From positions 175,141-239,140 of the forward strand of contig CAVYBO010000002.1 of assembly GCA_963766885.1 (NCBI GenBank): DNA of 64,000 bases, in the 5' to 3' direction. The position numbers were made by a program, and so were the translations under genes. The notes under the pieces are model-generated. The model did not search any database, was not told the DNA's origin, and saw only the letters and a list, made by a program, of their open reading frames with translations. Shown one piece after another: positions 43,160-61,301 of this stretch. The stretch is from an uncultured bacterium (GTDB lineage Bacteria > Patescibacteriota > Minisyncoccia > Phycocordibacterales > CAIRYW01). How positions within the stretch are numbered: the stretch's first letter is position 1; each line of letters begins with the position of its first letter.

Positions 43160-43774
43160 TTATTGAATTACATCTGCTAAGAAGTTAAATAAACGAAGTG
43201 TCAGATGTCGTCGGAAAGAATGTTTTTTCAGTTTCTGAAGAAATACAGCCCGTTCTGCATCATCTTTAAATCCCCTATTTCTTATGACATTAAATCCATT
43301 GACTTTTACTCCGCAAAAAACAAGGATTCCAGCCACCCACACAGTAAAATACGGCACCGCCAAAAAAAGATAAAGCATTTTGGGAGCGTCGCAAGTTACA
43401 TAAATTCGGGCAGTTTTGCCTTTGAGCATCCCCATTCTTTTGCCGTCAACATATTTGTAAGCAAATTTGGCGCTTATGTTATTGTCTACAAAATTCTTCA
43501 TTATTGCTGGCATAGAAAGCCACCAGACAGGATGCACAAAAACAAGCTCGTCCGCTTGCATGATCTTTTTTTGCAATTCATCCCTATGCGGGTCAATAGG
43601 AATTTGGTGTATATCCTCAAACCGCAAAAAATCTTGGGTAAGGTTGGTTGTGTAAAGATTTAAAATTTCAACATCAATTCCTTTTTCTTTGCGCGCTTCA
43701 GCGACAATATTAGCAATTCCATGAGTAAATCCTTTGGAGCTTGGATGAGCGGTTATTATGAGTGTTTTTGACAT
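43160..43774 (-). CDS. flavodoxin-like fold NAD(P)H-dependent oxidoreductase
   Basis: LIITAHPSSKGFTHG…FVHPVWWLSMPAIMKNFVDN pattern typical of NQO/MdaB/YwrO-type FMN reductases. Confidence 0.6.
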   Translation of the reverse strand: MSKTLIITAHPSSKGFTHGIANIVAEARKEKGIDVEILNLYTTNLTQDFLRFEDIHQIPIDPHRDELQKKIMQADELVFVHPVWWLSMPAIMKNFVDNNISAKFAYKYVDGKRMGMLKGKTARIYVTCDAPKMLYLFLAVPYFTVWVAGILVFCGVKVNGFNVIRNRGFKDDAERAVFLQKLKKHSFRRHLTLRLFNFLADVIQ

Positions 43775-44977: not shown

Positions 44978-45556
44978 CTAGACTTTGCCTTTTGTGTGAT
45001 GACGGCGAAAAAAATAAAGAAGAATCAGGAGAACGTATCCTGTAAGCGACATCATCGGAATAGTAATGTATCCAAAATTAACAAAAAAAATCTGTGCGCA
45101 TGACGGGCCAACTGCCGCGCAGCCTCCCAAAATATCCGGATTAAACATCTGCCCGTAATAGTTAAATAAAGCAATCGCTCCTCCGATAATGGAAAATATA
45201 AGGCTGTATAGAAAAACAAAATCATCCTGCACTTTATTCACTTTTTCATTATAAAGAGCGACAGCAAACAAAATGGCTTGAGGATACCAAAATATTCTTT
45301 GCCACCAGCAAAGCTCGCACGGCGGAAAACCAATAATGTTTGAATAAATCAAGCTTGATACAACAGAAACAAGACTGATCAAAAATCCGATCCAGAGTGC
45401 GTGATCAGAAGCTTTTCTGGAAAGTTTATGCAGACTTTGATTTGGATGCTCAAGGATTACCGCTGTCAAAATCACTGCACCAATTAAAATAAATATTTGC
45501 AGAACCAGTGTTCCGATAGATAAAAGCTCGCTTAAGTTGGTTGCAAAAGGCGTCAT
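44978..45556 (-). CDS. DsbB/BdbC-like membrane disulfide oxidoreductase
   Basis: 4-TM protein with PPCELCWWQRIFWYP (CxxC at the membrane edge). Start moved to an internal Met. Confidence 0.55.
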   Translation of the reverse strand: MTPFATNLSELLSIGTLVLQIFILIGAVILTAVILEHPNQSLHKLSRKASDHALWIGFLISLVSVVSSLIYSNIIGFPPCELCWWQRIFWYPQAILFAVALYNEKVNKVQDDFVFLYSLIFSIIGGAIALFNYYGQMFNPDILGGCAAVGPSCAQIFFVNFGYITIPMMSLTGYVLLILLYFFRRHHTKGKV

Positions 45557-45596
45557 GAAAATATAATAACATTTTTTAGGACTTGAGCTAGCTGTC

Positions 45597-46715
45597 AATG
45601 GCGGTGTGTCGGAGTTAAGTACCTGTGAGTCCAATCCCTATAAGCATCTTCTGACATCTTTTTGGAAATTAATTTGAAGGATCAGAGTCTACATCAATAT
45701 TTTAAAAATGAGACAAATGAAACATTAATTATCAGTGTGAGAAAAACGCCTCCGTATAAATTTTTTCTTCAGAGATTTTAAAAGATCGCAAATCACGCCA
45801 AATATCTCGAGTAAAAGATATAGAGCCGCAAATCAGAAATTCAGTATCTGAATCAATCGGAATACTTTCAATAATTTTTTGTCCGGTAATTCTACCTTCA
45901 AAAATTTTCTCTGAAACCTTTTCTCTTGTTATAAAATAATTCACCTTAAAATTTTTATACTGATTTTGAAGTTCATCAAAAGTTTTTCTAAAAATTATAT
46001 CCTGAAGCGTTTTGTTGCTATAAAAAAGAGTCATTTTTCTTAATGGGTTATTCAAAAGAGCTGAAATAATCATGCTCCTGAAAGGAGCGATACCAATGCC
46101 GGCAGCAACCATAACCAAATGGCTTTTTTCAGATTCGCTGTAGAAAAATCCATATGGCAAAGAAGCTATGATTCTATCTCCTGTTTTTTTCGCTACAAGA
46201 CTATTTGAAAACTCACCAATAGCTTTGACTGTAATACTAATTAATCTTTCCTTTGGAGAGCTGGATATGCTGTATGCTTTGCCCTCTGGCGTGTTGGTCT
46301 CAGGAAAATAGACAGTTATGAATTGCCCAGGAACATAGTGCGGGCAAACTTTATTCCAATTAATAAGTCTTAACGTGGAAACCCCCTTTGCTTCCATTAT
46401 ATTGCTTTGCACCATGTATGTTTCTTTAATTTCTCTTTTCATCGCTGTTTTCGTAATCTTCAATTGCTTCTCGTAAAGCCTCATGCCCCAAGACCGAGCA
46501 GTGATATTTCCTGTCTGGAAGGCCACCAAGGCGATCAATTATTGATTCCGGGGTCAGCCGCTTTGCCCGATCAACAGTCATGCCACTGTTTTCAGTTGCC
46601 ATAACTGACATCATTGATGTCGAAGCGATTGCTGAGGCACAACCAAATGTTCGCCATTTGCATTCGCTGATTTTTTTTGTTTTCTTATCTACTCTAATCC
46701 AAACAATCATCATGT
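45597..46715. repeat. ~1.1 kb segmental duplication, copy 1 (FNR-like gene plus 3' part of iscU); near-identical to 56293..57418
   Basis: Identical 268-aa ORFs and identical flanking nucleotide sequence; I saw one mismatch (gaaggatcag vs gaagggtcag). Confidence 0.85.
45732..46538 (-). CDS. FNR-like FAD/NAD(P)-binding oxidoreductase (PyrK-like, no Fe-S Cys cluster), copy 1
   Basis: GKAYSISSSP (RxYS-type FAD site) and VMVAAGIGIAPFRSM (GxGxxP NAD site). Confidence 0.6.
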   Translation of the reverse strand: MIALVAFQTGNITARSWGMRLYEKQLKITKTAMKREIKETYMVQSNIMEAKGVSTLRLINWNKVCPHYVPGQFITVYFPETNTPEGKAYSISSSPKERLISITVKAIGEFSNSLVAKKTGDRIIASLPYGFFYSESEKSHLVMVAAGIGIAPFRSMIISALLNNPLRKMTLFYSNKTLQDIIFRKTFDELQNQYKNFKVNYFITREKVSEKIFEGRITGQKIIESIPIDSDTEFLICGSISFTRDIWRDLRSFKISEEKIYTEAFFSH

Positions 46716-46866
46716 CTCCGCAAGCCGGACTACCGACAATACCAACGCCATCTGCTTGATAATCTGCTTCGTTGATTAAAATATTCCGAGGATTGAAAAA
46801 GTGATCCTTGACCACATCGCTATATAGCCAATCTTCCACATCACATGTCAGATTTTTTATTTTCAT
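46426..46866 (-). CDS. iscU: Fe-S cluster assembly scaffold IscU/NifU-like
   Basis: GSPACGDMM, TFGCASAIASTS, KYHCSVL conserved Cys motifs. True start may be an internal Met. Confidence 0.85.
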   Translation of the reverse strand: MKIKNLTCDVEDWLYSDVVKDHFFNPRNILINEADYQADGVGIVGSPACGDMMIVWIRVDKKTKKISECKWRTFGCASAIASTSMMSVMATENSGMTVDRAKRLTPESIIDRLGGLPDRKYHCSVLGHEALREAIEDYENSDEKRN

Positions 46867-48062: not shown

Positions 48063-48723
48063 GTTTTTTTAATGAACGCTGAAAAATTTTAAATTCTTCA
48101 TCACTATAAGTTACTTTTCTTCGGAACTGAGGATTGAGAAGTTTTGTTGGGATAAATTTCTGAAGATAGTATTTTTTGGCACCATGAATTTGCCTGCCGA
48201 TTTCTTCTATATCTTTCTCAGAAAGAAGTGATTTAATTACAGTCGTCCTAAACTCATACTCAATTTTTGATGACATCAAAAGGTTGATACTTTTTTGTAT
48301 TGATTCCACATCAACGGGCCGCGCTACAGTTTGGCTGTATTTGGACATTGGCGATTTAATATCCATAGCAACATAATCAACAAGATTTTTATTGATGGCT
48401 TTTTTCAACATTTCAAAATTAGTTCCGTTTGAATCAAGCTTTACTAGAAATCCGAGATCTTTAACTTTTTTCATAAAATCCAAAAGATCATCATGAATAG
48501 TTGGCTCTCCTCCTGTTATTACAATCCCGTCAAGAATCTTTTTTCTTTTTTTGAGAAAATCAATTATTTCCTGTTCGGAAAATCTAATCTCTACTGTTTC
48601 ATCAACAAGCTCCGGATTGTGGCAATAAGGACATCTGAAATTGCAACCGATTGTATAAACCATGCAGGCGATTTTGCCGGGGTAATCAATAAGGGTAAAT
48701 TTTTCAAATCCTCCAAAAACCAT
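48037..48723 (-). CDS. nrdG: anaerobic ribonucleoside-triphosphate reductase activating protein (radical SAM)
   Basis: CNFRCPYCHNPE radical-SAM CxxxCxxC motif; immediately downstream of nrdD. Start set at an internal Met. Confidence 0.75.
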   Translation of the reverse strand: MVFGGFEKFTLIDYPGKIACMVYTIGCNFRCPYCHNPELVDETVEIRFSEQEIIDFLKKRKKILDGIVITGGEPTIHDDLLDFMKKVKDLGFLVKLDSNGTNFEMLKKAINKNLVDYVAMDIKSPMSKYSQTVARPVDVESIQKSINLLMSSKIEYEFRTTVIKSLLSEKDIEEIGRQIHGAKKYYLQKFIPTKLLNPQFRRKVTYSDEEFKIFQRSLKKHVQYCGIR

Positions 48724-48724
48724 T

Positions 48725-50890
48725 CTATGATTTGATGACCTCTTCAGCTTCGACCTTTGAGTTAACTGTGGGAGCATATGTTTTGCGTAGATCATACTCT
48801 GCTTGTTTACCAACATTCCATTGACTGACTGGGCGCAAATAGCCGACAATTCTCGAATAGACTTCGCATTCATTTTGACAGCTTGGGCACAAAAAATGCT
48901 CCCCTGTTATATAGCCGTGGGAACGGCACACACTAAATGTTGGCGTTAGAGTGAAATACGGCAGATGATAATTTTCGCAAATTTTCTTGACAAGTTGAGG
49001 CACCGCTTGAGCATCAGCAATCCTTTCTCCAAGAAACAAATGAATAACTGTTCCTCCTGTATATTTGGTTTGGAGAGGGTCTTGAATATTTAAGGTTTCG
49101 ACTATGTCTTCTGTGTAATGAACTGGAAGATGAGAGGAGTTTGTGTAGAATGGTTCAGCTCCCTTTTTATATTCCTCTTCATTAGCAACGATAATTTCCG
49201 GATATTGTTTTTTATCTTTCAAAGCCAAGCGATAAGCTGTGCCTTCAGCGGGAGTTGCTTCAAGATTGTAAAGATTTCCTGTTTCTTTTTGGTAAGAGAT
49301 TAATCGCTTTCGCATAAAATCAAGGACTTCTTTAGCAAAAGCTTGGCCATTTTCGCTTCCAATATCTTTTCCCAAAAGATTCAAAGCTGCTTCATTCATA
49401 CCAACAAGACCGATAGTTGAAAAGTGATTGTACCAATATTTACCAAATCCGGTTTTGATATTACGTAAATAGAACTTTGTATATGGGTAAAGATTGGCAT
49501 CAGTTAACCGCTCCAAAACTTTTCGCTTAATTTCCAAGCTCTCTTTAGCGATATCCATTTTCAAAGCGAGATTGCTAAAGAATTCTGATTTTCCTTTTTT
49601 CTTGGAAACATAAGCAAGCTTAGGCAGATTTATAGTGACTACTCCAACCGAGCCGGTTAAAGCGTTAGCTCCGAAAAGCCCCCCTCCACGTCGATCAAGC
49701 TCTTCAAGGTCAAGTCTCAGCCGACAACACATCGATCTAGTATCTTCAGGCTTCATATCTGAGTTTATGAAATTACTGAAATATGGCACACCGTACTTGG
49801 CGGTAATCTCCCATAATCCTTTCAGATTTTGGTTACCCCAATCAAAATCTCGAGTAACATTGACTGTTGGAATAGGAAAAGTAAAAACTCTTCCTGCAGC
49901 ATCGCCTTCAGCCATTACTTCAAAGAAAGCTTTATTAAAGAGATCCATTTCGTGCTGAAAGTCTCCATATTTTTCTTCTTTGATTTTTCCTCCTATAACG
50001 ACTCCCTGATTCTTGAAATTCGGCGACGGTGTCAGATCAAGAGTAACGTTTGAAAAAGGGGTCTGAAAGCCTACGCGTGTCGGAACATTCATATTAAAGA
50101 TAAACTCTTGGAGACCCTGTTTAACTTCCTTAAAAGATAATTTATCGAATCGAATAAACGGGGCAAGCAGCGTGTCAAAGTTTGAAAATGCAATAGCGCC
50201 AGCCGCTTCTCCTTGCAAGGTGTACATAAAATTAACGACCTGTCCCAAGGCAGTACGAAAATGCTTCGGTGGAGCAGATTCAATCTTGTCAGGTGTGCCA
50301 CGAAATCCCTCAAGTAAAAGATCCATCAAGTCCCAGCCCACACAATAAATAGAAAGGGTTCCTAAATCGTGAAGATGCAAATCTCCATTTTCGTAAGCAA
50401 CTCTGATTTCCTTTGGATAAATTTTGTTAAGCCAGTAAATTTTGCTCTGTTCTGAAAAAATATAATTATTAAGACCCTGAAGCGAGTAACCCATATTGCT
50501 ATTCTCCTTAACCTGCCAATCAAGCTTGTCTAAATAGCTATCAATCAAATTAAGCGACACAGTTGTGGCAAAAGCCCTCATTTCAGCGTGCTGCCTGCGG
50601 TAAATGATGTATGCCTTGGCGGTTTGTTTAAAGCGCGATTTCAGCAGTACCTTTTCCACCAAATCCTGAACAAATTCAACATTCAAATCTTGTTTTAGAG
50701 GTTTGTTTTTGAGATCAAAAATAATTTTTTTGCCAAGTTCATTGGCCTCTTTTTTACCAAACTCACCAGTGGCAATGGCAGCCTTTTCAATAGCTCTGAT
50801 TATTTTCTTCTTTTTAAAAATTTCTTCCCTGCCGTCGCGCTTTATTATTTTTTTAAGCATAGTTTGAGCGTTGGATTGATAATAATTCAA
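48725..50890 (-). CDS. nrdD: anaerobic ribonucleoside-triphosphate reductase (class III)
   Basis: N-terminal ATP-cone, large class III barrel, C-terminal CPSCQNEC zinc site and glycyl-radical region RIVGY. Confidence 0.9.
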   Translation of the reverse strand: MNYYQSNAQTMLKKIIKRDGREEIFKKKKIIRAIEKAAIATGEFGKKEANELGKKIIFDLKNKPLKQDLNVEFVQDLVEKVLLKSRFKQTAKAYIIYRRQHAEMRAFATTVSLNLIDSYLDKLDWQVKENSNMGYSLQGLNNYIFSEQSKIYWLNKIYPKEIRVAYENGDLHLHDLGTLSIYCVGWDLMDLLLEGFRGTPDKIESAPPKHFRTALGQVVNFMYTLQGEAAGAIAFSNFDTLLAPFIRFDKLSFKEVKQGLQEFIFNMNVPTRVGFQTPFSNVTLDLTPSPNFKNQGVVIGGKIKEEKYGDFQHEMDLFNKAFFEVMAEGDAAGRVFTFPIPTVNVTRDFDWGNQNLKGLWEITAKYGVPYFSNFINSDMKPEDTRSMCCRLRLDLEELDRRGGGLFGANALTGSVGVVTINLPKLAYVSKKKGKSEFFSNLALKMDIAKESLEIKRKVLERLTDANLYPYTKFYLRNIKTGFGKYWYNHFSTIGLVGMNEAALNLLGKDIGSENGQAFAKEVLDFMRKRLISYQKETGNLYNLEATPAEGTAYRLALKDKKQYPEIIVANEEEYKKGAEPFYTNSSHLPVHYTEDIVETLNIQDPLQTKYTGGTVIHLFLGERIADAQAVPQLVKKICENYHLPYFTLTPTFSVCRSHGYITGEHFLCPSCQNECEVYSRIVGYLRPVSQWNVGKQAEYDLRKTYAPTVNSKVEAEEVIKS

Positions 50891-50981
50891 TTATCAATCT
50901 AATTTAATAATTTCGCAATTACTAAACCAGTGGATAACAGAGTTCAACACGCAAATCGTAAGATTGCAAATTCAATCTCCC

Positions 50982-51007
50982 AAATTACCAGTATTTACAG
51001 GTAATTT
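50982..51007. promoter_or_regulatory. palindromic operator candidate AAATTACC-N10-GGTAATTT between the ArsR-like regulator and nrdD
   Basis: Perfect 8-bp inverted arms about 92 bp upstream of the nrdD start and 12 bp after the arsR-like stop. Confidence 0.4.
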
Positions 51008-51018
51008 CTAGACAATCT

Positions 51019-51387
51019 TTAGACCACCATTCTACGGTGTCTTAGGTTGTGCAATATCTTACAAGGCTCAACGATCCTAGGATCAACGATTTTATAGAAA
51101 ATATTTAGCCCGTGTCGGCGAGTTTTTACCAGTCCGTTGTGTCGAAGAAGTGCCAAGTGTTGGGAAAGATTAGCTTTTGATATTTTGGTGATTTTCAGAA
51201 GCTCATCAACACCCACTTCCCTTTTCTTCAAAATATTAAGCACCTCAAGGCGTTTTGGGTTGGCCAATATCTTGTAGATATCTGCATTTTTATTATAAGC
51301 TTCTTGCGGTAGTGGTGATTTCATAATTGCGATACTTAGTAATTTAAGTATATCAGTCTCAAGATATAATTCAAATCGTGTCTTCAA
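51019..51387 (-). CDS. ArsR/SmtB-family winged-helix transcriptional regulator
   Basis: ILANPKRLEVLNILKK…ISKANLSQHLALLRHNGLV HTH signature. Confidence 0.7.
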   Translation of the reverse strand: MKTRFELYLETDILKLLSIAIMKSPLPQEAYNKNADIYKILANPKRLEVLNILKKREVGVDELLKITKISKANLSQHLALLRHNGLVKTRRHGLNIFYKIVDPRIVEPCKILHNLRHRRMVV

Positions 51388-52615
51388 TTTCCATCAATCT
51401 GTTGTATTTAGAGACCCTTTCTCCCCTTACCAATGACCCTGATTTTATATAATCACACGATAGCCCGACGGCAAGATCTGCAATAAATGTGTCCGTTGTC
51501 TCACCCGAACGATGCGAGACAAAAGGTGTCCAACCTTGTTTTTTTGTCATTTCAACCGCTCTTATTGTTTCAGTGAGCGTTCCTATTTGGTTGAGTTTGA
51601 TAAGAACAGAATTAATAGCTTCCTTTTCAGTTGCTTTTTGAATTCTCTTTATGTTTGTGACGGTCAAATCATCCCCTACTATTTTTATTTTATCTCCAAG
51701 AGTTCTATTCATTTCTGAAAAACCCTCCCAATCATCTTCAGCCAGCCCATCTTCAATTGAGATAATCGGATAAGTGTTAACCATCTTTTCATACCAATCA
51801 ATTAAGCCAGAAGTATTTATACTTCTCTTATGCCCATCAATTCTGAGCCAATACGCGTCGTCATTATAAAAAGTTGAGGCCGCCGCATCTATTCCTATTT
51901 TTATTTTTTCAGTTGAATATCCAGAATCTTTAATCGCCCGAACTATAAGTTCTAGAGCTTCTTCATTTGAAGAAAGTTTAGGAGCGAATCCCCCCTCGTC
52001 TCCAACACTTACAGCATATCCTTTTGACATCAAAATTTTTCTTAGTGCTGAAATTACTTCTGAGGCTGCACGTACTTTCTCCTTAAAAGAATCGAAATTA
52101 ATTGGACCAATCATAAATTCTTGAATATCAAGCCCACTGTCGGAATGTTTGCCGCCGTTTATAATATTAAACATCGGCTGAGGAAGTTTAAAAGTTTTAT
52201 TTTCTGCCAAATTACCAATGTATTCGTATAGTTCAATCTTTTCTTCTCTGGCTTTAGCCCGAGCAAACGAGAGCGACACAGAAAGAATAGTGTTGGCACC
52301 AAGTCTTGATTTATTTTCTGTTCCATCGAGATCAATTAACGCTTTATCCAGTGTATTCTGATTAAACTCATTATTTTGAATACATAAGTTTATTTCATCA
52401 TTAACATTTTTTACTGCTATAAGTACACCAAACCCGTTGTATCGCTTTTTGTCGCCGTCTCTTAGTTCTAGAGCCTCGTGAATACCCGTGCTTGCTCCTG
52501 ACGGCACTGATGCAACTTCTGTAATTCCACTTGAGAGTTCACACATAGTTTCTATCGTCGGATTGCCTCTTGAATCAATAATTTCTCTTGCTTTAACTGA
52601 TTTTATTTTTGTCAT
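51371..52615 (-). CDS. eno: enolase
   Basis: Full-length enolase signatures (SRGNPTIE…, IKLNQIGTLTET, SHRSGETED-like). Confidence 0.95.
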   Translation of the reverse strand: MTKIKSVKAREIIDSRGNPTIETMCELSSGITEVASVPSGASTGIHEALELRDGDKKRYNGFGVLIAVKNVNDEINLCIQNNEFNQNTLDKALIDLDGTENKSRLGANTILSVSLSFARAKAREEKIELYEYIGNLAENKTFKLPQPMFNIINGGKHSDSGLDIQEFMIGPINFDSFKEKVRAASEVISALRKILMSKGYAVSVGDEGGFAPKLSSNEEALELIVRAIKDSGYSTEKIKIGIDAAASTFYNDDAYWLRIDGHKRSINTSGLIDWYEKMVNTYPIISIEDGLAEDDWEGFSEMNRTLGDKIKIVGDDLTVTNIKRIQKATEKEAINSVLIKLNQIGTLTETIRAVEMTKKQGWTPFVSHRSGETTDTFIADLAVGLSCDYIKSGSLVRGERVSKYNRLMEIEDTI

Positions 52616-53424
52616 TATAAAAGATGAAAGTTATCAATTATGTGTTTTTCGGCTTCAACCAATATTTTTTCCATCATCTTCACTGCTTCAACAGGATATT
52701 TACCTTTTGTTGTTTCTTCTGAGAGCATTACAGCATCAGAACCTTGAATAATAGCGTTAGCCACATCAGTAACCTCCGCCCTAGTTGGGGTGGGATTTTC
52801 TACCATCGACAAAAGCATTTGTGTGGCAGTAATGACCGGTTTTCCAGCTTCTTTACACTTCTTAATTATATCCGCTTGCACAAAAGGTATTTGCTCAAGA
52901 GGTACTTCGTTTCCCAGATCGCCACGAGCTACCATAACAGCGTCTGTCACTTCAATAATCTGGTTAATTTTTTCAACACCAACGGCACGTTCTATTTTTG
53001 CAACTATTTTTTGGGTACCAGAACATTCTTTTATTATTTTTCTACAAAGATTTATGTCTTCTGGACCGCCAACAAATGAAACCGCTATATAATCAACATT
53101 TTGCTCAGCTGCGAATTTTATAAATTCTTTGTCATTGTCAGTAATTGCAGAAACTGCGCTGTGATTATATGTATGCTCCGCACTTTCCTGAATTCTTGGC
53201 CCAGGTAGATCAATTAAGATAAGAATCTTTCGTCCGCATTCTTTTTCAAGCTCTCGGATAAGTTTAATTTGACGCACCCTTTCATCAAGATGACTCCAGG
53301 AAAAGTTAAACCTGACCACATCAAGCTCGTGTTCGATCATCGCCTTAAGAGTTTCCCTATTATCAGATGCCGGGCCTATAGTCGCTACTATTTGTGCTTT
53401 TGAATTTGTTTGAAAATTTGTCAT
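52615..53424 (-). CDS. truncated pyruvate kinase: A-domain barrel only, lacking B (lid) and C-terminal domains
   Basis: [69 protein letters not shown] are all PK-specific. Only 269 aa, and the K+/substrate loop jumps directly to the second barrel half. Confidence 0.55.
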
Positions 53425-54065
53425 GCGTTTACTTTGGATTCCACTTTTTTAATCTGCTTTTTAATCATTTTTCCTTGACTATCAACATCATATATTAAAA
53501 CGGCACCGAAAAGCATCTCAACATTCTTTATTTTCTCATCAGATATATTTTCAATGTATTTCATCAAGGCTCTGATCGCATTGCCATGAGAGACAATCAA
53601 AACATTTTTATCGTTATTAAGTAGCGGGACAATATGCTCTTGGTAATACGGCACGGCTCTTTCATACACCATTTTCAGAGTCTCCCCGTTCGGTACCGGG
53701 CAATCCCAGTCTCTTCTTATGCAATCAAATTTCTCTTCACCGAACAGCTTTTCCATTTCCCATTTATTTTTTCCCGTGTAATCTCCGTAATCTCTTTCAT
53801 TCAAAGCGGCAGAAAATTCCACAGGCACATCAAGGTCTTTGGCTTTTTCCTCCATTCCAAGAAGTGTTTCGTACGAGCGAATTTGAGCCGAAGCAAAAGC
53901 TTGATCAATGTGAATTACCTCGATCAACTCTCCCATTTCTTCAGATTTTCTGAATCCATATTCGGTCAAATGCACATCTCGGCTTCCAGTCCATTTTCCA
54001 AGTTTGTTCCATTCCGATTCATGATGTCTTGCGATTATAAGCTTCCCTGTTTTTTTAAATTGCAT
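53421..54065 (-). CDS. gpmA: 2,3-bisphosphoglycerate-dependent phosphoglycerate mutase
   Basis: RHHESEWN (RHGxxxWN) catalytic motif. Confidence 0.8.
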
Positions 54066-54066
54066 T

Positions 54067-55041
54067 TTATTTGTTTATAATATTTTTCGGCATCTTTCCG
54101 TCAAAAAAATCAATAATGTTTTGAGCGGCAAGCTCTGCCATCTGATTGCGCGTTTCGATGCTTGCAGATGCGATATGAGGAGTTAGAATCACATTCTGAA
54201 GTTTGATCAGACCTTTGGAAATATTTGGCTCAAATTCAAAAACATCCAAAGCCGCTCCGGCAATAATTTCTTCTCTTAGACATTTTTCCAAGGCAACTTC
54301 ATCAATAACAGGACCGCGGGAAGTGTTGATTAGAAAGCTGGTTGGCTTCATCATTTTTAATCTGGCTTCATTGATAAGATGCTTCGTTGAATCCATAAGA
54401 GGAACATGAAGTGAAATTACATCAGCTCTTTGCAAAACTTCTTCTGGTGAAACGCAATACGTTGCTCCGCAATTTTCTTCAATTCTGCTATTTCTAACAA
54501 CATCTGTATAAATAATCCTCATACCCAGTCCTTGGGCGTAATGTGCAACCCTTTCTCCGATTCTACCAGCACCGATGAGACCCAGTGTTTTGCCAATAAT
54601 ATCTGTACCTATAAAATTCATCGGCGCCCAGCCTTTGTACTTTCCATCCCGAACAAATTGGTCTGCCTCAACGATTCGCCCTGCAAGAGCAAGCATTAAA
54701 GCAATGGCGTGCTCTGCAACAGATTCGGAAGTTTGCTCTGCCGGAGCGTTTGTTATTACAATTCCTCTTTTTTTGGCTTCTACGAGATCAATATTGTCAA
54801 AACCAGTTGCGTAGTTAGCATATATTTTTACACTAGGTGCCACATCAAAAACAGAAGCATCAATTTTGTCAGTCAACAAAGAAAGCACTCCGTCATAGTT
54901 TCCGTTTTTTAAATTCTTGATCAGATCTCTTTGGCTCAAGATTTCATCTTTTGGATATATTTCCAACTGATATCCCTTATCAGCAAGCATCTTGATTCCA
55001 ATGTCTGGAATCTTTCTTGTTACAAAAATTTTTTTGGTCAT
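54067..55041 (-). CDS. D-isomer-specific 2-hydroxyacid dehydrogenase (glycerate/hydroxypyruvate reductase-like)
   Basis: GLIGAGRIGERVA NAD site and catalytic His region (PHIASAS). Confidence 0.8.
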   Translation of the reverse strand: MTKKIFVTRKIPDIGIKMLADKGYQLEIYPKDEILSQRDLIKNLKNGNYDGVLSLLTDKIDASVFDVAPSVKIYANYATGFDNIDLVEAKKRGIVITNAPAEQTSESVAEHAIALMLALAGRIVEADQFVRDGKYKGWAPMNFIGTDIIGKTLGLIGAGRIGERVAHYAQGLGMRIIYTDVVRNSRIEENCGATYCVSPEEVLQRADVISLHVPLMDSTKHLINEARLKMMKPTSFLINTSRGPVIDEVALEKCLREEIIAGAALDVFEFEPNISKGLIKLQNVILTPHIASASIETRNQMAELAAQNIIDFFDGKMPKNIINK

Positions 55042-55051
55042 TTATTATATA

Positions 55052-56185
55052 TTAACAATTATCAGCTCCAATTGCTTGGCTTATGTTAGTAAATCCATCT
55101 CTTTTGAGAAGTTTAGCCAAACCCTGGTTTATCTCACTTATAACCTGCGGGCCTTCAAATATCATTCCTGTAATCATCTGGATAAGCGTCGCACCGAGGC
55201 GGATTTTTTTATATGCATCTTCAGCAGTAAATACTCCACCGCATCCTACAAGCACAAACCTTTTCCCTTCTCTCTTATAAATATATGCAAGCATATTATC
55301 AGCAAGATCCTGAACGACTTTCCCGCTCATTCCACCCACATCAGGAATTGAACTGTCTTTGATTTTCGGGTTGTCCTTTTTCTTAGTGAGATTGGCGCAA
55401 ATAATTCCTTGGATACGATGGTTTCGCGCAACATCAAGAATAGCGTCAAGCTGTGAATGATTGAGGTCCGGAGACATTTTTATAAAAACAGGTTTTTTGG
55501 TTGGAATCTCATCCAGAATATCAAAAAGGTAATCTAGTTTATGCGGCGCAACAAAAGACTGCCCACCTATAGCATTTGGACAGCTAATATTTACCGTAAT
55601 GTAGTTGGCTACAGGTTCCATGATTCTGAAAGCTTTTGCAAAATCTTTGATACCATCTTTAAGCACAAGATTCTCTTTGCAATTAGTCATAGCTATTGAG
55701 ATACCTATTGGGATATTGAATTTTTTATCTTTAAGCTTTTGCAATATTGCTTCGCAGCCATCATTTTTAAGACCGTAATAAACTACAAGGCTTTTTGATT
55801 TTGGTAGACGCCAAAGCCGAGGTTTTGGATTGCCCTCATATTTTTCTCCCGTGATTGATCCAACTTCAGAGAAACCAAAGCCAACATCAGCAATAATGTC
55901 AGTAAGTTCTGCATTTTTGTCAAAACCGGCGGAAAGCCCTATTGGATTTTTAAAATTTATACCGAGGACTTCTTGTTCCAATACAGGATTGTTATAACCA
56001 AATAATCCTCGCGTTAATTTCTGGCAAAAAGAATATTTACCCATCCGCGCACCAAGTTTTGTCATTCTGTCGTGTATTGTTTCCGGATCATTCAGGAAAA
56101 AAACAGGTTTGAGGATACCAGAATATAATACATGATTTATCTTGTTTCTATAGTATGTGGCTTTTTCATTCATATATAGTTTCAA
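55052..56185 (-). CDS. pyrD: dihydroorotate dehydrogenase with class-2-like N-terminal extension but Cys catalytic base (NISCPN)
   Basis: GLSAGFDKNAE, GFGFSEVGSIT, PRLWRL, NISCPN, GCGGV motifs; N-terminal ~40-aa helical extension. Confidence 0.75.
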   Translation of the reverse strand: MKLYMNEKATYYRNKINHVLYSGILKPVFFLNDPETIHDRMTKLGARMGKYSFCQKLTRGLFGYNNPVLEQEVLGINFKNPIGLSAGFDKNAELTDIIADVGFGFSEVGSITGEKYEGNPKPRLWRLPKSKSLVVYYGLKNDGCEAILQKLKDKKFNIPIGISIAMTNCKENLVLKDGIKDFAKAFRIMEPVANYITVNISCPNAIGGQSFVAPHKLDYLFDILDEIPTKKPVFIKMSPDLNHSQLDAILDVARNHRIQGIICANLTKKKDNPKIKDSSIPDVGGMSGKVVQDLADNMLAYIYKREGKRFVLVGCGGVFTAEDAYKKIRLGATLIQMITGMIFEGPQVISEINQGLAKLLKRDGFTNISQAIGADNC

Positions 56186-56434
56186 AGTTAATTGATTACT
56201 TGATTATAATATAACACAAATAAAAATGAAAACCATATTCCGAACATGAAATCTAAGGTCTTGCTTATCGGGCATCAGGGTCTTCCGATACTAAATACTC
56301 TTGGCGGTGTGTCGGAGTTAAGTACCTGTGAGTCCAATCCCTATAAGCATCTTCTGACATCTTTTTGGAAATTAATTTGAAGGGTCAGAGTCTACATCAA
56401 TATTTTAAAAATGAGACAAATGAAACATTAATTA

Positions 56435-57241
56435 TCAGTGTGAGAAAAACGCCTCCGTATAAATTTTTTCTTCAGAGATTTTAAAAGATCGCAAATCACG
56501 CCAAATATCTCGAGTAAAAGATATAGAGCCGCAAATCAGAAATTCAGTATCTGAATCAATCGGAATACTTTCAATAATTTTTTGTCCGGTAATTCTACCT
56601 TCAAAAATTTTCTCTGAAACCTTTTCTCTTGTTATAAAATAATTCACCTTAAAATTTTTATACTGATTTTGAAGTTCATCAAAAGTTTTTCTAAAAATTA
56701 TATCCTGAAGCGTTTTGTTGCTATAAAAAAGAGTCATTTTTCTTAATGGGTTATTCAAAAGAGCTGAAATAATCATGCTCCTGAAAGGAGCGATACCAAT
56801 GCCGGCAGCAACCATAACCAAATGGCTTTTTTCAGATTCGCTGTAGAAAAATCCATATGGCAAAGAAGCTATGATTCTATCTCCTGTTTTTTTCGCTACA
56901 AGACTATTTGAAAACTCACCAATAGCTTTGACTGTAATACTAATTAATCTTTCCTTTGGAGAGCTGGATATGCTGTATGCTTTGCCCTCTGGCGTGTTGG
57001 TCTCAGGAAAATAGACAGTTATGAATTGCCCAGGAACATAGTGCGGGCAAACTTTATTCCAATTAATAAGTCTTAACGTGGAAACCCCCTTTGCTTCCAT
57101 TATATTGCTTTGCACCATGTATGTTTCTTTAATTTCTCTTTTCATCGCTGTTTTCGTAATCTTCAATTGCTTCTCGTAAAGCCTCATGCCCCAAGACCGA
57201 GCAGTGATATTTCCTGTCTGGAAGGCCACCAAGGCGATCAA
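56435..57241 (-). CDS. FNR-like FAD/NAD(P)-binding oxidoreductase, copy 2 (identical protein), directly upstream of pyrD
   Basis: Identical 268-aa translation to 45732..46538. Confidence 0.6.
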   Translation of the reverse strand: MIALVAFQTGNITARSWGMRLYEKQLKITKTAMKREIKETYMVQSNIMEAKGVSTLRLINWNKVCPHYVPGQFITVYFPETNTPEGKAYSISSSPKERLISITVKAIGEFSNSLVAKKTGDRIIASLPYGFFYSESEKSHLVMVAAGIGIAPFRSMIISALLNNPLRKMTLFYSNKTLQDIIFRKTFDELQNQYKNFKVNYFITREKVSEKIFEGRITGQKIIESIPIDSDTEFLICGSISFTRDIWRDLRSFKISEEKIYTEAFFSH

Positions 57242-57417
57242 TTATTGATTCCGGGGTCAGCCGCTTTGCCCGATCAACAGTCATGCCACTGTTTTCAGTT
57301 GCCATAACTGACATCATTGATGTCGAAGCGATTGCTGAGGCACAACCAAATGTTCGCCATTTGCATTCGCTGATTTTTTTTGTTTTCTTATCTACTCTAA
57401 TCCAAACAATCATCATG
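57129..57417 (-). pseudogene. 5'-truncated iscU copy (C-terminal ~96 codons) abutting the IS3 element
   Basis: Identical to the 3' part of iscU at 46426..46866; the reading frame upstream is replaced by IS sequence. Confidence 0.7.
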
Positions 57418-57478
57418 TGGCCCTCCCCCCAAATTTCATACACCAACCTTGTATAATTAGAAGCTAATATACAAGCAT

Positions 57479-57733
57479 ATGAAAAGACAAAAAATAGCCC
57501 CTGAAATAAAGGAGCAGATTATTAACAGAATCAAGAATGATGGTATCAGTGTAGTCCAAGCAGCCAAAGAGCATGGCATCAGCGATGTCACCATATATGG
57601 GTGGATAGCCAAGAAAACCAAAGGTCAGCCAACTCTTTCAGAGGTAATTAAACTCAAGCGAGAAAATGCTCAACTGCTTCAGTTAGTTGGAGAAATTACT
57701 CTAAAGCTCTCAGAAACCCAAAAAAAGAATTGA
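57479..57733 (+). CDS. IS3-family transposase OrfA (HTH)
   Basis: HTH plus leucine-zipper-like C-terminus; ends at the AAAAAAG frameshift motif (about 57717..57724). Confidence 0.8.
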   Translation: MKRQKIAPEIKEQIINRIKNDGISVVQAAKEHGISDVTIYGWIAKKTKGQPTLSEVIKLKRENAQLLQLVGEITLKLSETQKKN

Positions 57734-58551
57734 AAGAAAATAGTGAGACTCCCAAAACTCTTCGGGCCAGAGAGCTTGGGATCTCCCGCAGCACTCTCTA
57801 CTACAAACCAAAGAAACCTGACAAAGATTGGGAACTAAAATGTCAGATTGAAGAAGTTCTCAGAGAGCATCCTTCATATGGTTCTCCACGCATCGCCCTT
57901 GCCCTCAAAAGAAACCACAAACCGATTGAACGAGTGATGAAACTTTTCGGTATCAAGGCATATCGCAGACGTGGTAGAAGATGGAAAAAATCGAAGAATA
58001 TCAAAGTTATTTACCCAAATCTTCTTTTGACTAATTATCCCCAATATGAAAATCATATCTGGGTGACAGACTTCACCCGCATACCCTTTGAAAACAAAAC
58101 CATCTATGTGGCTACAGTCGAAGATTTGTTCACCAGAAAAATTGTTGGGTTGTCAGTATACACCACCCATGCTGTTCAATTGGTTTTAGCATCATTCATG
58201 TCGGCTCTTCAAAATAATCCCAGACCAAAAATTTTCCACTCTGACAACGGCAGTGAATACAACTCGGAGGTGTTCATTCAGGCGCTGCAGACCGTCGGGG
58301 TATTGATTTCTCGTTCTGCTCCAGGTTGTCCGTGGGAGAATGGGTACCAGGAATCTTTCTACGACAAATTCAAAATTGATCTTGGGGATTCTTCCCGATT
58401 CAAAACATTGGGAGAGCTGGTGTTCGCTATTTACCAAACAATTTACATTTACAACAACACCAGGATTCATACCGCCCTCAAAATGTCACCCGTGCAATTT
58501 GCACTTTCGTCGGCTCGAGAATACAATTCAGCTAACAAGGTTAGTGTCTGA
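57730..58551 (+). CDS. IS3-family transposase OrfB (rve integrase core, DDE)
   Basis: HIWVTDFT (D), HSDNGSEY (D), PWENGYQESF (E) integrase-core motifs. Confidence 0.85.
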   Translation: MKENSETPKTLRARELGISRSTLYYKPKKPDKDWELKCQIEEVLREHPSYGSPRIALALKRNHKPIERVMKLFGIKAYRRRGRRWKKSKNIKVIYPNLLLTNYPQYENHIWVTDFTRIPFENKTIYVATVEDLFTRKIVGLSVYTTHAVQLVLASFMSALQNNPRPKIFHSDNGSEYNSEVFIQALQTVGVLISRSAPGCPWENGYQESFYDKFKIDLGDSSRFKTLGELVFAIYQTIYIYNNTRIHTALKMSPVQFALSSAREYNSANKVSV

Positions 58552-58616
58552 TGAAATGGGGGAAGTACAGTGAATCAAAGGAATCCTTCCAGAGATGTCT
58601 AAAGCGTGAGTGAGTT

Positions 58617-59690
58617 ATGAATGCAAATCCGCAGCTTGCTGTATCAGTACAGACAGGTCTGGTCCGCTGGTTTGACCGCCGCCTCGATAAGAGGTTCGGC
58701 TTCATTACCTTGGACTGGAAAAACCCAAAGGAGGAAGACATTTTCTTCCACCTCAACGACAACGCCATCGTCTACGGAGACGCTGGTCAACCATACTTCC
58801 GGACTGACCCGGCGAACAAACCGGCTAGGCTCCCTGAAGAGGGTGACCTGGTGGTGTTTGAAACTCAGCATCCTCCACGTGGTCCGAAGGCCAAGCCTTG
58901 GGCTTACCTTCATGACTACGAGGCGATCGTGCGCGGTATTTCTCCGCAGCCGCTGTACCGACTGGTCGGGCACTACCATATTTCAGACGGCGGCAAGGAG
59001 AAAAAAGGTCCTCGGATTATCTTCTGGGGCGGCCTGTCTCTCGACTCGCTGTATCTCCGGTATCCGGACTGTCGAGCGGATCTCGCAGCCATCAAGTGGT
59101 GCTTCCGGTTGCCCTGCTCGAAAGTCGAAGGTATCCATCTGGAAGTTCTGCCCGCGGAAGCGGACAAGTACGACGACTCGGCGTGGATGCCTTACGAAAT
59201 TCCGGAAGATGCGGACGACGATGTCGTTCTCATTACAGAACCGAAGCTCAAGATCACCGCTGAGTACGGCCACGGTGGTCACGAAACCGAGTACGTCATC
59301 CGACTCTGGGAGGAAGAACCGGGACACCCCGGCCATTACCTCAAGTGTCTCGACTTCCCGAAGGAGTTTTCCGACGAGTTCGAGATCGTGGCCAGAGCCG
59401 AGCCGAAGCGGTGGGCAGTATATCCCCGCGGTGTTCGGATCGAGGTGTACTTCACGGATCAGCTCCGGACCGAAGAGCCGGTTCCCTACGGGACACCGGG
59501 TTTCGTTAGCTTCTCTTCCAATCATTTCGAATGCAAGCGTCTCATTGAGACGACTCTGCAGCGGCTGAAAACGAAGCTCGCCAAGCTTCGCAAGGAGAAG
59601 ATCCTGGACATCTGGGCCGACGATTTAACTTCGCCCCTCATCAAGGAGCGCAAGCTTACGTTCCATGTGAACGAGGTCGTCGTGGAGTAA
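58617..59690 (+). CDS. cold-shock-domain (CSD) N-terminal fusion protein with a ~280-aa C-terminal domain of unknown function; G+C-rich foreign gene
   Basis: N-terminus GLVRWFDRRLDKRFGFITLDW…DIFFHLND matches the CSD RNP1/RNP2-like pattern. The rest is unrecognised. Abrupt rise in G+C and GC3 relative to the host. Confidence 0.45.
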   Translation: MNANPQLAVSVQTGLVRWFDRRLDKRFGFITLDWKNPKEEDIFFHLNDNAIVYGDAGQPYFRTDPANKPARLPEEGDLVVFETQHPPRGPKAKPWAYLHDYEAIVRGISPQPLYRLVGHYHISDGGKEKKGPRIIFWGGLSLDSLYLRYPDCRADLAAIKWCFRLPCSKVEGIHLEVLPAEADKYDDSAWMPYEIPEDADDDVVLITEPKLKITAEYGHGGHETEYVIRLWEEEPGHPGHYLKCLDFPKEFSDEFEIVARAEPKRWAVYPRGVRIEVYFTDQLRTEEPVPYGTPGFVSFSSNHFECKRLIETTLQRLKTKLAKLRKEKILDIWADDLTSPLIKERKLTFHVNEVVVE

Positions 59691-59766
59691 CAGGTTCACA
59701 CAATATATTAAAGGTTTGTCCCCGCCCTGAAATTCGGAGAGCCTAGAGGAAGCAGAGCCTCAAAAC

Positions 59767-59802
59767 AAAGCCGTCGCCCACAAGCGCGGCTTTTGTCTTT
59801 TT
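59767..59802 (+). terminator. rho-independent terminator after the CSD-fusion gene
   Basis: aaagccgtcgcccacaagcgcggcttt hairpin followed by TTTTGTCTTTTT. Confidence 0.6.
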
Positions 59803-59838
59803 ATATTTTATTGTAATGTCTTACCATCTGTACTTTAT

Positions 59839-60300
59839 ATGATCCAAAACAGATTACGCATCCTGTGTCTATACAACGACCAGGAACCAAGCTATCTGGA
59901 AGCGGATCCAGAATTCGAACTTCGAGATCACGAAGTAACAATCTTCGAAACGTATGTGGAAGCGAAGACAGCAATTCAGGATAGCACAAGAGGAATACCT
60001 CCTTTCGATGTTGTCCTTGCAGATGTGTCAGTGCCTGGAGGAAAATTCGAAGACGGTTTTGACGACTTCCCTTTCTCTCCAGTATTGCTTCAACCCTATC
60101 TGAGCCAAGTACTTGTGCGAGGTTTAGGCGTCTTTGCTCCGGAAGATTTCGAAACAACCTTTGAGTCCTCAGATGGATTTGCTGTGCTAGTTGCTTCGAA
60201 AGAATGTCGAACACCATTCGGCACTCGAGACTGGAGGAAACTTTTGGAACTTGTTCTCAAGGCTTCGGATGAAGCTGACCAATTCAGAGTCCGTGACTAA
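59839..60300 (+). CDS. stand-alone receiver (REC)-like domain protein with atypical acidic pocket (NDQE in place of DD); G+C-rich
   Basis: RILCLYNDQE…YVEAKTAI…FDVVLADVSVPGG…FAVLVASKE follows the CheY-like beta-alpha layout with a conserved phospho-acceptor-position Asp. Confidence 0.35.
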   Translation: MIQNRLRILCLYNDQEPSYLEADPEFELRDHEVTIFETYVEAKTAIQDSTRGIPPFDVVLADVSVPGGKFEDGFDDFPFSPVLLQPYLSQVLVRGLGVFAPEDFETTFESSDGFAVLVASKECRTPFGTRDWRKLLELVLKASDEADQFRVRD

Positions 60301-60322
60301 CCCGCTATGCGGGTATTTTTTA
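60301..60322 (+). terminator. terminator after the REC-like gene
   Basis: cccgc-tat-gcggg followed by TATTTTTTA. Confidence 0.55.
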
Positions 60323-60343
60323 TAGAAAATATTTTTTAATTTA

Positions 60344-60376
60344 AATAAAAAAATCGAGCCGCATTTCTGCAAGCTC
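60344..60376 (-). terminator. terminator of the convergent minus-strand gene 60378..61262
   Basis: cgagc-N13-gctcg hairpin followed by an A-run on + (a T-run on the minus strand). Confidence 0.55.
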
Positions 60377-60377
60377 G

Positions 60378-61262
60378 TTACTTTCGATTCATGAACATCG
60401 ATGCCGCTGCGGCCAGACCACAGAGAAGGATGAGTTCTTGATACCAGCCGTCCACATTGTGACAAGTGAACTCAACACCATATCCTCGACGAATGTCGTG
60501 AACATGCGGAGACGGATGAATTCCACAAGCATCACCTGGACAGTCGATGATCAGGTTGCCACCTGTAACCCAGGAATGGAAGGAATGTTGATGGAAGTCT
60601 TCCACCTCTCCGAACATTTGCCTGTAGGCAGATTTCTCTGCCTCAACCACTATGGGAAGCTCAACATCACTGCCGCGAGATACGGAACGCAGTAGGTCAA
60701 CGAAATCCGGACTCATCTGTCCTCCAAGGAAGTGGCGACCAGCCTGTCCCCCAAGAAGCAGAGTAAACCACTGCTTTTCCTCCGATTGGATATCCACTTC
60801 AGGTGAGAACTCGATGGCAGAAAAGAGAACCGAGAGCGAGATGCAGAGCAACCGCGCTTTGTCCCAATCACGAACCCTCTGCCATCCTGTGCCACGACAG
60901 TCCATGCAATCTCCCATGATTTCTCCGCAGCTAATTCGGTTGCGAGTTCCCTGACATTCCGGACAGACCATGCCGGTTTGGTGAATCACATGAGGAATCC
61001 TGATCCGATAGGTTATCCAGTCAGCATCAGTTTCTTCTCTGACGATAACCTCGTCAAAGCCGAAGGTGTCCTGACCAAGTCTCGTTTCGCAACGAAGGAA
61101 AAGGTCACGTTCAACACCAAAAAGCTTGAAGTGTTTGGCAGTTTCTCTGTATGGAGCTGTTTCGATGAACTTTCGATGAATCTTCAGAAACAGAGACTCT
61201 TCGTCCCTGTCCCACCACAAACCATACCACTTGGGTATGTCTTCAAAGGCGAGTACTTTCAT
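60378..61262 (-). CDS. Cys-rich zinc-ribbon (CxxCxGxG DnaJ-type repeat) protein of unknown function with C-terminal hydrophobic tail; G+C-rich
   Basis: CPECQGTRNRISCGEIMGDCMDCRGTG; C-terminal LILLCGLAAAASMF. Confidence 0.4.
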   Translation of the reverse strand: MKVLAFEDIPKWYGLWWDRDEESLFLKIHRKFIETAPYRETAKHFKLFGVERDLFLRCETRLGQDTFGFDEVIVREETDADWITYRIRIPHVIHQTGMVCPECQGTRNRISCGEIMGDCMDCRGTGWQRVRDWDKARLLCISLSVLFSAIEFSPEVDIQSEEKQWFTLLLGGQAGRHFLGGQMSPDFVDLLRSVSRGSDVELPIVVEAEKSAYRQMFGEVEDFHQHSFHSWVTGGNLIIDCPGDACGIHPSPHVHDIRRGYGVEFTCHNVDGWYQELILLCGLAAAASMFMNRK

Positions 61263-61301
61263 ATCTGACTGGATATTACTACAACGCGTTTACTGTGCAA
61301 G

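Follow-up and report, generated by a model that had tools for sequence, protein, structure and literature searches.

A cysteine-type class-2 dihydroorotate dehydrogenase in a Patescibacteria genome, and the probable origin of its flavoprotein neighbour in a recent duplication

The textbook dihydroorotate dehydrogenase (DHODH) of class 2, the membrane- and quinone-linked family, uses a serine as catalytic base within an active-site loop of the form SSPNTPGLR. A cysteine in its place is already known from class-II enzymes of anaerobic and facultatively anaerobic fungi, namely SjUra9, DbUra9 and ArUra9 (Bouwknegt et al. 2021, PMC8520639), and the same study speaks of "few reported exceptions" to the serine base among other class-2 sequences and cites a survey of about 1,500 such sequences by Sousa et al. 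These fungi are the sole experimental precedent, and they tie the cysteine to a function that is independent of respiration. In this work we describe a pyrD gene in a 64-kb stretch of DNA from an uncultured member of the Patescibacteria (assembly GCA_963766885.1, contig CAVYBO010000002.1, positions 175,141 to 239,140; hereafter the window), the product of which is, by its sequence, a genuine DHODH of a large cysteine-type branch of the class-2 family. Immediately upstream of pyrD stands a flavoprotein gene, here called fnr, which an earlier note on this DNA had proposed as the partner of the dehydrogenase. We consider it probable that two unrelated things have come to lie side by side: a cysteine-type class-2 DHODH with a quinone-type acceptor, and a recently duplicated fnr that derives from an nrdDG-iscSU operon. 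The cysteine base has its precedent in the fungi, and the pairing with the flavoprotein is probably accidental.

The pyrD open reading frame (55052..56185, minus strand), which encodes a class-2-fold enzyme of the flavin mononucleotide (FMN) type, spans 377 residues when read from its TTG codon, and the public gene call begins at Met5 to give 373 residues; the ATG at 56173 is the likely true start. Its product matches the Pfam family DHO_dh (PF01180, E 2.4e-69) and scores above the curated class-2 cut-offs of the NCBIfam models TIGR01036 (287.5 against 200 bits) and NF003652 (338.8 against 267 bits), whereas class-1 models reach 81-105 bits against cut-offs of 269-301. Among the latter are the class-1A model NF002702 (81 against 301 bits), from whose class the protein is also set apart by an N-terminal domain that is present despite the cysteine base, and a further class-1 model (105 against 270 bits). 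In the PDB, the highest-ranking sequence matches belong to class 2, with the enzymes of rat, human and M. tuberculosis (E 1e-62 to 1e-58); those to class-1A chains are far weaker (E 1e-18 to 1e-14). An AlphaFold (AF2) model built on 23 homologues (predicted local distance difference test, pLDDT, 81; predicted template-modelling score, pTM, 0.84) places three N-terminal helices (residues 2-30, 34-50 and 52-62) ahead of the FMN-binding TIM barrel, and Foldseek superposes the model on human DHODH over 371 columns with a template-modelling (TM) score of 0.85-0.89. These helices, the full-length alignment and the near-invariance of H38 and R126 mark the N-terminal tunnel domain of class 2, and by fold, domain architecture and curated hidden Markov model thresholds the predicted product is a member of that family. 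Aligned residue by residue with the rat, human and M. tuberculosis enzymes, its "vniSCpn" falls on "vnvSSpn", which places Cys202 (codon TGT, 55580..55582, minus strand) at the position of the class-2 catalytic serine (human Ser215), within a loop that reads NISCPNAIGGQ in place of the textbook serine loop. The earlier note had read class-2 architecture, an N-terminal helical extension and overall class-2 length from the letters, together with a cysteine at the catalytic-base position; all of this is borne out, and the cysteine is not a misread serine.

The cysteine appears to be a trait of a clade and not a one-off. All 120 of the 120 closest homologues read N[IVM]SCPN, the named sources among them being Patescibacteria (Paceibacteria, Taylorbacteria, Parcubacteria), and among the best 150 representatives in a HMMER search for more distant homologues across 1.84 billion cluster representatives (50% clustering level) the catalytic position holds Cys in 129 and Ser in 16, with the motif absent from 5. 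[quoted passage not shown] In a neighbour-joining tree, which is crude, the canonical "SSPNTPGLR" enzymes are separated from those of CPR/DPANN and from a group that reads "SCPNTxEGKTF". Several positions vary together with the cysteine (K168N, L208G, R209E/Q, T266L and Y338I, the last equivalent to human Tyr356), and the loop changes from TPGLR to xxGG(E/Q). Of the Asn and Lys residues that bind dihydroorotate or orotate, N199, N204, K236 and N265 are invariant across cysteine-type and serine-type sequences and N141 is largely kept (126/153 and 55/61, respectively); of the tunnel residues, H38 (human His56) is found in 151/153 and 60/61, and R126 (human Arg136) in 153/153 and 61/61. In the protein of the window the site for FMN and dihydroorotate or orotate is intact. 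Since several loop positions co-vary, we rejected the description of the CPR enzyme as a single S-to-C point variant of the canonical one. That description does seem to fit the separate case of the Flavobacteriaceae: the cysteine-type sequences of the Flavobacteriales sit inside serine-type Bacteroidota in the same tree, and because of this nesting their Ser-to-Cys change is an independent one. The replacement ("NVSCPNVGSHAKL" / "NVSCPNVKDLTKL") was seen in the class-2 enzymes at six loci of Flavobacteriaceae (L038, L039, L041, L049, L058 and L067) and two of Vicingaceae (L043 and L052). Members of these two families with a cysteine-type DHODH are aerobic, menaquinone-containing bacteria. The public annotation of the whole cysteine-type branch is "quinone-dependent dihydroorotate dehydrogenase". 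Under this label stands an entire deep branch in which the base is a cysteine, as in class 1, and the active-site loop is remodelled; the branch dominates in CPR bacteria and in DPANN archaea, which are believed to have neither respiratory chains nor the means to make quinones.

The neighbouring flavoprotein gene (fnr copy B, 56435..57145, minus strand) encodes what is probably a stand-alone protein of the FNR-fold, NAD(P)H-flavin/ferredoxin-reductase type; its open reading frame reaches back to a TTG at 57241, and the most likely start is the MKRE at 57145, which gives 236 residues as in its homologues. The protein matches NAD_binding_1 (E 2e-17, 64 against 22 bits), falls below the cut-off for FAD_binding_6 (17.4 against 21.1 bits), carries AAGIGIAP as a GxGxxP-type NAD(P)H motif and has KAYS in place of the flavin motif RxYS, a reading common to 85 of 120 homologues. 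Its C-terminus, ...EAFFSH, follows straight after the NAD domain (EAFFSH is kept in 92 of 120 homologues), and reading of the sequence finds no C-terminal cysteine cluster or Fe-S domain, as the earlier note had stated of the [2Fe-2S] cluster. Among families and structures it comes closest to Fre and to the reductase modules found in PaaE, Hcr, Hmp, BenC and NqrF, in every case far under the curated cut-offs. The description "PyrK-like" holds at the level of the superfamily only: PyrK models give 63 bits against 224 and 24 against 219, there is no PyrK chain among 74 PDB matches, and on these two grounds we rejected fnr as a PyrK orthologue. Neither the [2Fe-2S] domain nor the conserved adjacency expected of a class-1B partner was found. 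The protein is duplicated, as had been noted, with a copy at 45732-46442 that is 100% identical over the 236 residues.

That second copy (fnr copy A, 45732..46442, minus strand) reveals where the gene natively belongs. It is the last gene of an operon on the minus strand comprising nrdD (48725-50890; Pfam ATP-cone/NRDD), nrdG (48037-48873; Radical_SAM), iscS (46863-48062; Aminotran_5) and an intact iscU (46426-46866; NifU_N), the stop of which it overlaps by 17 nt. In all six of the other genomes compared (L082, L083/84, L085/86, L087, L088 and L089) a homologue with 51-57% identity is likewise the fifth gene of nrdD-nrdG-iscS-iscU-fnr; the overlap with the iscU stop, of 11-23 nt and mostly 17 nt, is present in seven of seven genomes when copy A is included. 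In none of the six is fnr adjacent to pyrD. One of them (L085) has the order pyrD-2HADH-gpmA-arsR-nrdD-nrdG-iscS-iscU-fnr, where 2HADH is a 2-hydroxyacid dehydrogenase, which is the order of the window minus the extra copy; in two (L082 and L083) the pyrD-2HADH-gpmA module converges on fnr; and in the remaining three (L087, L088 and L089) no pyrD lies within 9 kb, and fnr persists there. At the 80 GTDB loci, tblastn (E 1e-5) found no fnr homologue within 10 kb of pyrD, and no reductase recurs among the open reading frames clustered around 26 CPR/DPANN pyrD loci, where the only recurrent neighbours are a P-type ATPase (6), a 2-hydroxyacid dehydrogenase (4) and an enolase (3). The native place of fnr is at the 3' end of the nrdD-nrdG-iscS-iscU-fnr operon. 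This operon, which occurs in Paceibacteria-type genomes, is often preceded by an ArsR/HTH_5 regulator.

Such an arrangement suggests a self-contained anaerobic ribonucleotide-reductase unit, in which NrdD would be served by its radical-SAM activase NrdG, IscS and IscU would assemble the Fe-S cluster of NrdG, and the NAD(P)H-dependent Fnr would feed electrons to Fe-S assembly, to the reductive activation of NrdG, or to both. Fpr-type enzymes in E. coli support NrdG activation and Fe-S assembly; to our knowledge, a fixed position of fnr after iscU in an nrdDG-iscSU operon has not been described. The conserved operon offers a concrete candidate electron source for the activation of anaerobic ribonucleotide reductase in organisms without flavodoxin. 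The earlier note had placed the other flavoprotein copy beside iscSU and nrdDG and had offered a ferredoxin- or flavodoxin-reductase role as a fallback; the synteny favours this fallback.

The adjacency of fnr and pyrD appears to be the by-product of a very recent segmental duplication. A direct repeat of 1,117 bp occurs at 45599..46715 (copy A, the native copy) and again at 56302..57418 (copy B), with a single mismatch, which is intergenic (at 56384). Copy B contains fnr copy B and a 5'-truncated iscU (57129..57418, minus strand) in which, by comparison with the intact gene, 50 residues are missing from the start, the first cluster-ligand Cys (GSPACGD) among them; Pfam NifU_N aligns with this remnant at profile positions 35-124 only, which corresponds to the 3' two-thirds of iscU. 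The match between the two copies of the repeat ends exactly where an insertion sequence (IS) of the IS3 family begins (57419..58569, plus strand; orfA 57479-57733, HTH_Tnp_1, E 2.8e-10; orfB 57730-58551, rve, E 1.6e-18). The element has the features of its family, including imperfect TG...CA terminal inverted repeats, and its flanks, ATG and GTG, give no clear target-site duplication. Outside the repeat, a unique region of 116 bp (56186..56301, minus strand) precedes pyrD and contains a promoter-like TTTTCA-18-TATAAT (56232..56203), which is suggestive only because promoter and terminator counts in the scan were no higher than in shuffled controls. We also compared the window with an independent short-read assembly of run ERR11630394 (Logan contigs), in which one contig of 1,117 bp (L091) is identical to 45599-46715 and another of 9,646 bp is identical to 46686-56331; both ends of the latter reach 30 nt into the repeat, and the assembly graph has a branch at either end of the repeat contig. 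Overlaps of 30 nt with a single repeat contig are what a real two-copy repeat yields in a k=31 assembly graph. A likely route would be tandem duplication of a unit of about 10.7 kb, followed by removal or truncation of most of the second copy at the IS3 insertion, which would have left fnr and a dead fragment of iscU upstream of pyrD. The alternative that the 9.6 kb between the repeats are themselves a mobile element was rejected, since the same genes in the same order are common to relatives.

Directly after the IS3 element, window positions 58570-61300 have a G+C content of about 50%, against 38% for the genome, and the three open reading frames there (58617-59690, 59839-60300 and 60378-61262) match no Pfam family apart from a sub-threshold cold-shock-domain match; this is probably foreign or mobile DNA. 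By eye, a second and different transposase is a candidate at 10395-11387 (minus strand), with an IS1595-like zinc-ribbon N-terminus and a DDE region.

Quinone chemistry has further traces in and around this system. Directly downstream of fnr copy A lies a gene for a DsbB-family thiol:quinone oxidoreductase (44978..45634, minus strand; Pfam DsbB, E 1.1e-11, 45.8 against 22.1 bits), and beyond it one for a Flavodoxin_2 flavoprotein of the NAD(P)H:quinone oxidoreductase (NQO) type with a hydrophobic C-terminal stretch (43160..43774, minus strand; E 3.5e-31). Together with pyrD these make three nominally quinone-reducing enzymes in 13 kb, with no quinol oxidiser visible. In a large sister group among the Patescibacteria, an N-terminal VKOR domain with four transmembrane segments is fused to a cysteine-type class-2 DHODH, which lies on the C-terminal side of the VKOR. 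The best matches of one such protein (P0157, locus L090, 906-2504; further examples are P0147, P0158, P0164, P0175, P0177, P0181, P0209, P0210 and P0392-P0510) have the PF07884+PF01180 (VKOR+DHO_dh) architecture in 120 of 120 cases, and all 120 keep the cysteine base as well as the four VKOR catalytic cysteines (CxxC and the loop Cys pair); their source annotation is just "dihydroorotate dehydrogenase". We found no description in the literature of a VKOR-DHODH fusion or of the CPR/DPANN cysteine-type clade. The pyrD of the window is itself not fused to VKOR, and beside unfused pyrD at the 26 CPR/DPANN loci no DsbB, NQO-like protein or VKOR domain was found. Two other fusions were seen in the same DHODH clade, one with an N-terminal PAP2 membrane phosphatase domain (P0121, 550 residues) and one with a C-terminal cytidylyltransferase-like domain (P0134, 497 residues). 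The premise that this type of organism lacks quinones is weakened by the DsbB and NQO-type proteins of the window and by the fusions in sister lineages.

Two readings would give the adjacency of fnr and pyrD another meaning. According to the earlier note, the FNR-fold flavoprotein docks on the DHODH as its dedicated soluble acceptor and carries electrons from FMN through flavin adenine dinucleotide (FAD) to NAD(P)+, as a class-1B-like pair without an Fe-S relay. Electron transfer from dihydroorotate to NAD+ is chemically feasible, as class 1B demonstrates, the two genes are adjacent in this genome, and in three close relatives the pyrD-2HADH-gpmA module stands 0-8 kb from the operon that ends in fnr; this proximity is what remains for a link between the two, as the flavoprotein was otherwise never found with pyrD in the other genomes and loci compared. 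Against docking, the adjacency is unique to this genome and arose from a near-identical, IS-bounded duplication of 1.1 kb that carries a dead piece of iscU, fnr overlaps iscU in every genome compared and persists where pyrD is not nearby, the 80 pyrD loci are without it within 10 kb, and the PyrK scores and PDB matches given above tell the same way; in such a pair, moreover, there would be no Fe-S relay, and the retained class-2 tunnel domain would have no role. The conservation of gene neighbourhood brings the docking model close to refuted, and we attach the slightest of chances to it. Alternatively, the duplication could be an assembly artefact or a mixture of strain variants, with a single fnr and some other upstream neighbour of pyrD. 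Mis-joining is a classic problem at repeats of about 1 kb that are 99.9% identical, and the Logan contigs come from a short-read graph that is unable to phase two copies. However, the graph requires all four junctions (dsbB|R, R|iscU-5', pyrD-upstream|R and R|IS, where R is the repeat), the copies differ by one base, the deposited contig of 596 kb encodes the fnr protein twice (member_sequences = 2, one contig), and the repeat boundary falls exactly at the end of the IS, so that an artefact seems very improbable.

For the electron acceptor, we favour a quinone as the physiological partner of the cysteine-type enzyme. Cys202 would abstract the C5 proton of dihydroorotate, FMN would take the hydride, and the electrons would pass by way of the N-terminal tunnel to a lipophilic acceptor of the quinone type within the membrane. 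This acceptor would probably be scavenged, because these organisms are without respiratory chains; the flavoprotein would not be involved. This preference is drawn from the kept tunnel residues, the VKOR fusions, the DsbB and NQO-type proteins of the window and the presence of cysteine-type enzymes in quinone-respiring Flavobacteriaceae. Several points weigh against the combined reading of a quinone-linked enzyme beside an unrelated fnr. The window shows neither a gene for quinone biosynthesis nor a quinol oxidase, and complete electron-transport chains are missing from Patescibacteria and DPANN (PMC7507113), so that a quinone acceptor needs an unexplained source and sink; the fungal cysteine-type enzymes are precisely the respiration-independent ones (PMC8520639); the human tunnel residue Tyr356 is Ile in this DHODH; the proposed roles of fnr would follow from operon context; and the 0-8 kb proximity in three relatives hints weakly at some functional link. 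Several of these points suit a respiration-independent DHODH, in which electrons would pass to fumarate, in the same pocket as in class 1A, or to free FMN or FAD, and the N-terminal domain would serve membrane attachment or stability only. A cysteine base is the hallmark of the fumarate- and NAD-linked class-1 enzymes, the active-site loop departs from canonical class 2, and anaerobic ribonucleotide reductase genes lie close to pyrD. Such a cysteine also marks the three fungal class-II enzymes with anaerobic activity. Anaerobic function is lost in SjUra9 C265S, ArUra9 can reduce free flavins, and DbUra9 benefits from FUM1 mutations, fumarate being the suspected acceptor of a fungal enzyme other than the flavin-using one (PMC8520639). 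However, ArUra9, which uses flavins, no longer has the N-terminal domain or a conserved basic residue of the quinone site, whereas in the present clade that domain, H38 and R126 hardly vary; KmUra9 S263C still functions aerobically (PMC8520639); the VKOR fusions connect the clade with quinone chemistry and with the membrane; the cysteine is shared by aerobic, quinone-respiring Flavobacteriaceae; and no source of fumarate, whether tricarboxylic acid cycle or fumarase, was seen in the window. We regard the respiration-independent route as possible but unlikely; judged from the sequences compared, a quinone would receive about twice the weight of fumarate or free flavin, and the flavoprotein a very small share. 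In a more speculative and rather doubtful reading, the DHODH may work together with the thiol oxidases VKOR or DsbB in a minimal quinone loop of the membrane, and a pool of scavenged quinone could be charged or recycled by it in cells without a respiratory chain. Such a loop could run in either direction, from dihydroorotate through quinone to periplasmic disulfide reduction, or from thiols through quinone to the DHODH site. If true, it would explain the head-to-tail fusion to a catalytically intact VKOR in thousands of CPR genomes, the occurrence of pyrD without neighbouring pyr genes, and the DsbB and NQO-like flavoprotein 10 kb away in the window.

Downstream of pyrD and co-directional with it on the minus strand are genes for a D-2-hydroxyacid dehydrogenase (54067-55041), which follows after 10 nt, a gpmA-type phosphoglycerate mutase (53421-54065), a short pyruvate kinase (52615-53424) and an enolase (51371-52615). 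The pyruvate kinase, of 269 residues, lacks a C-terminal domain, and its match to the Pfam PK barrel profile is confined to the latter half (positions 171-328); an equally short one of 272 residues occurs in a relative (L088, 11721-12539). As had been noted before, no other pyr genes are nearby: E. coli PyrB, PyrI, PyrC, PyrE and PyrF queries (tblastn) have no match in the 64-kb window, nor, across the window and 36 CPR/DPANN-type loci (579 kb), within 10 kb of a cysteine-type pyrD, a result that has no bearing on the rest of these genomes. The sole match in the 579 kb is a PyrF at a serine-type locus of Elusimicrobiota. Elsewhere in the window, 21540-22115 (minus strand) encodes a protein of the F420-0:gamma-glutamyl ligase (CofE) family (Pfam, E 1e-31), and no other F420 genes were seen nearby.

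Together these analyses uphold a part of what the earlier note had proposed, namely the cysteine-type class-2 enzyme and the fallback reductase role of its neighbour, while synteny and the duplication speak against the flavoprotein as partner of the DHODH. Setting aside a two-protein DHODH prevents a false lead. The acceptor of the CPR enzyme and of its VKOR-fused form bears on whether episymbionts use borrowed quinones, and on how they handle the redox chemistry of disulfide bonds and pyrimidines.

Compared with described systems, the enzyme of the window most resembles the class-2 DHODHs of E. coli (PyrD, 1F76) and human (1D3G), with which it shares the full-length fold including the N-terminal tunnel domain, scores above the class-2 model cut-offs, the Asn and Lys residues for substrate binding and the counterparts of human His56 and Arg136. 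It differs from them in Cys for Ser, in "SCPNAIGGQ" for "SSPNTPGLR", in K168N, T266L and Ile for Tyr356, and in a host lineage without a respiratory chain. With the fungal cysteine-type enzymes it has in common the class-II scaffold, the cysteine base and a life without respiration, and like SjUra9 and DbUra9 it retains the N-terminal domain and the quinone residues, whereas ArUra9 is N-terminally truncated and cytosolic and the DHODH of the window is full length; the origins are independent, one a deep prokaryotic clade with CPR/DPANN members known from sequence alone and the other eukaryotic. The class-1B PyrD-PyrK pair of L. lactis, whose PyrK binds FAD and a [2Fe-2S] cluster, is similar in its cysteine base and in having an FNR-fold gene as neighbour, but the PyrD of the window is a class-2 protein and the flavoprotein has no Fe-S domain, fails the PyrK models and is tied in its genomic position to iscU. 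This flavoprotein is closer to E. coli Fre (1QFJ) and the flavodoxin reductase Fpr (1FDR), as well as to the BenC, Hmp and NqrF reductase modules, with a predicted two-domain FNR fold of about 235 residues, a GxGxxP motif and a C-terminal aromatic tail, although it scores far below the cut-offs of these families and has KAYS rather than RxYS. Finally, the VKOR-DHODH proteins of sister CPR lineages resemble the VKOR-thioredoxin fusion of Synechococcus in joining VKOR to a redox partner with the four catalytic cysteines kept, and differ from it in that the fused partner is a cytoplasmic DHODH and not a periplasmic thioredoxin-like domain.

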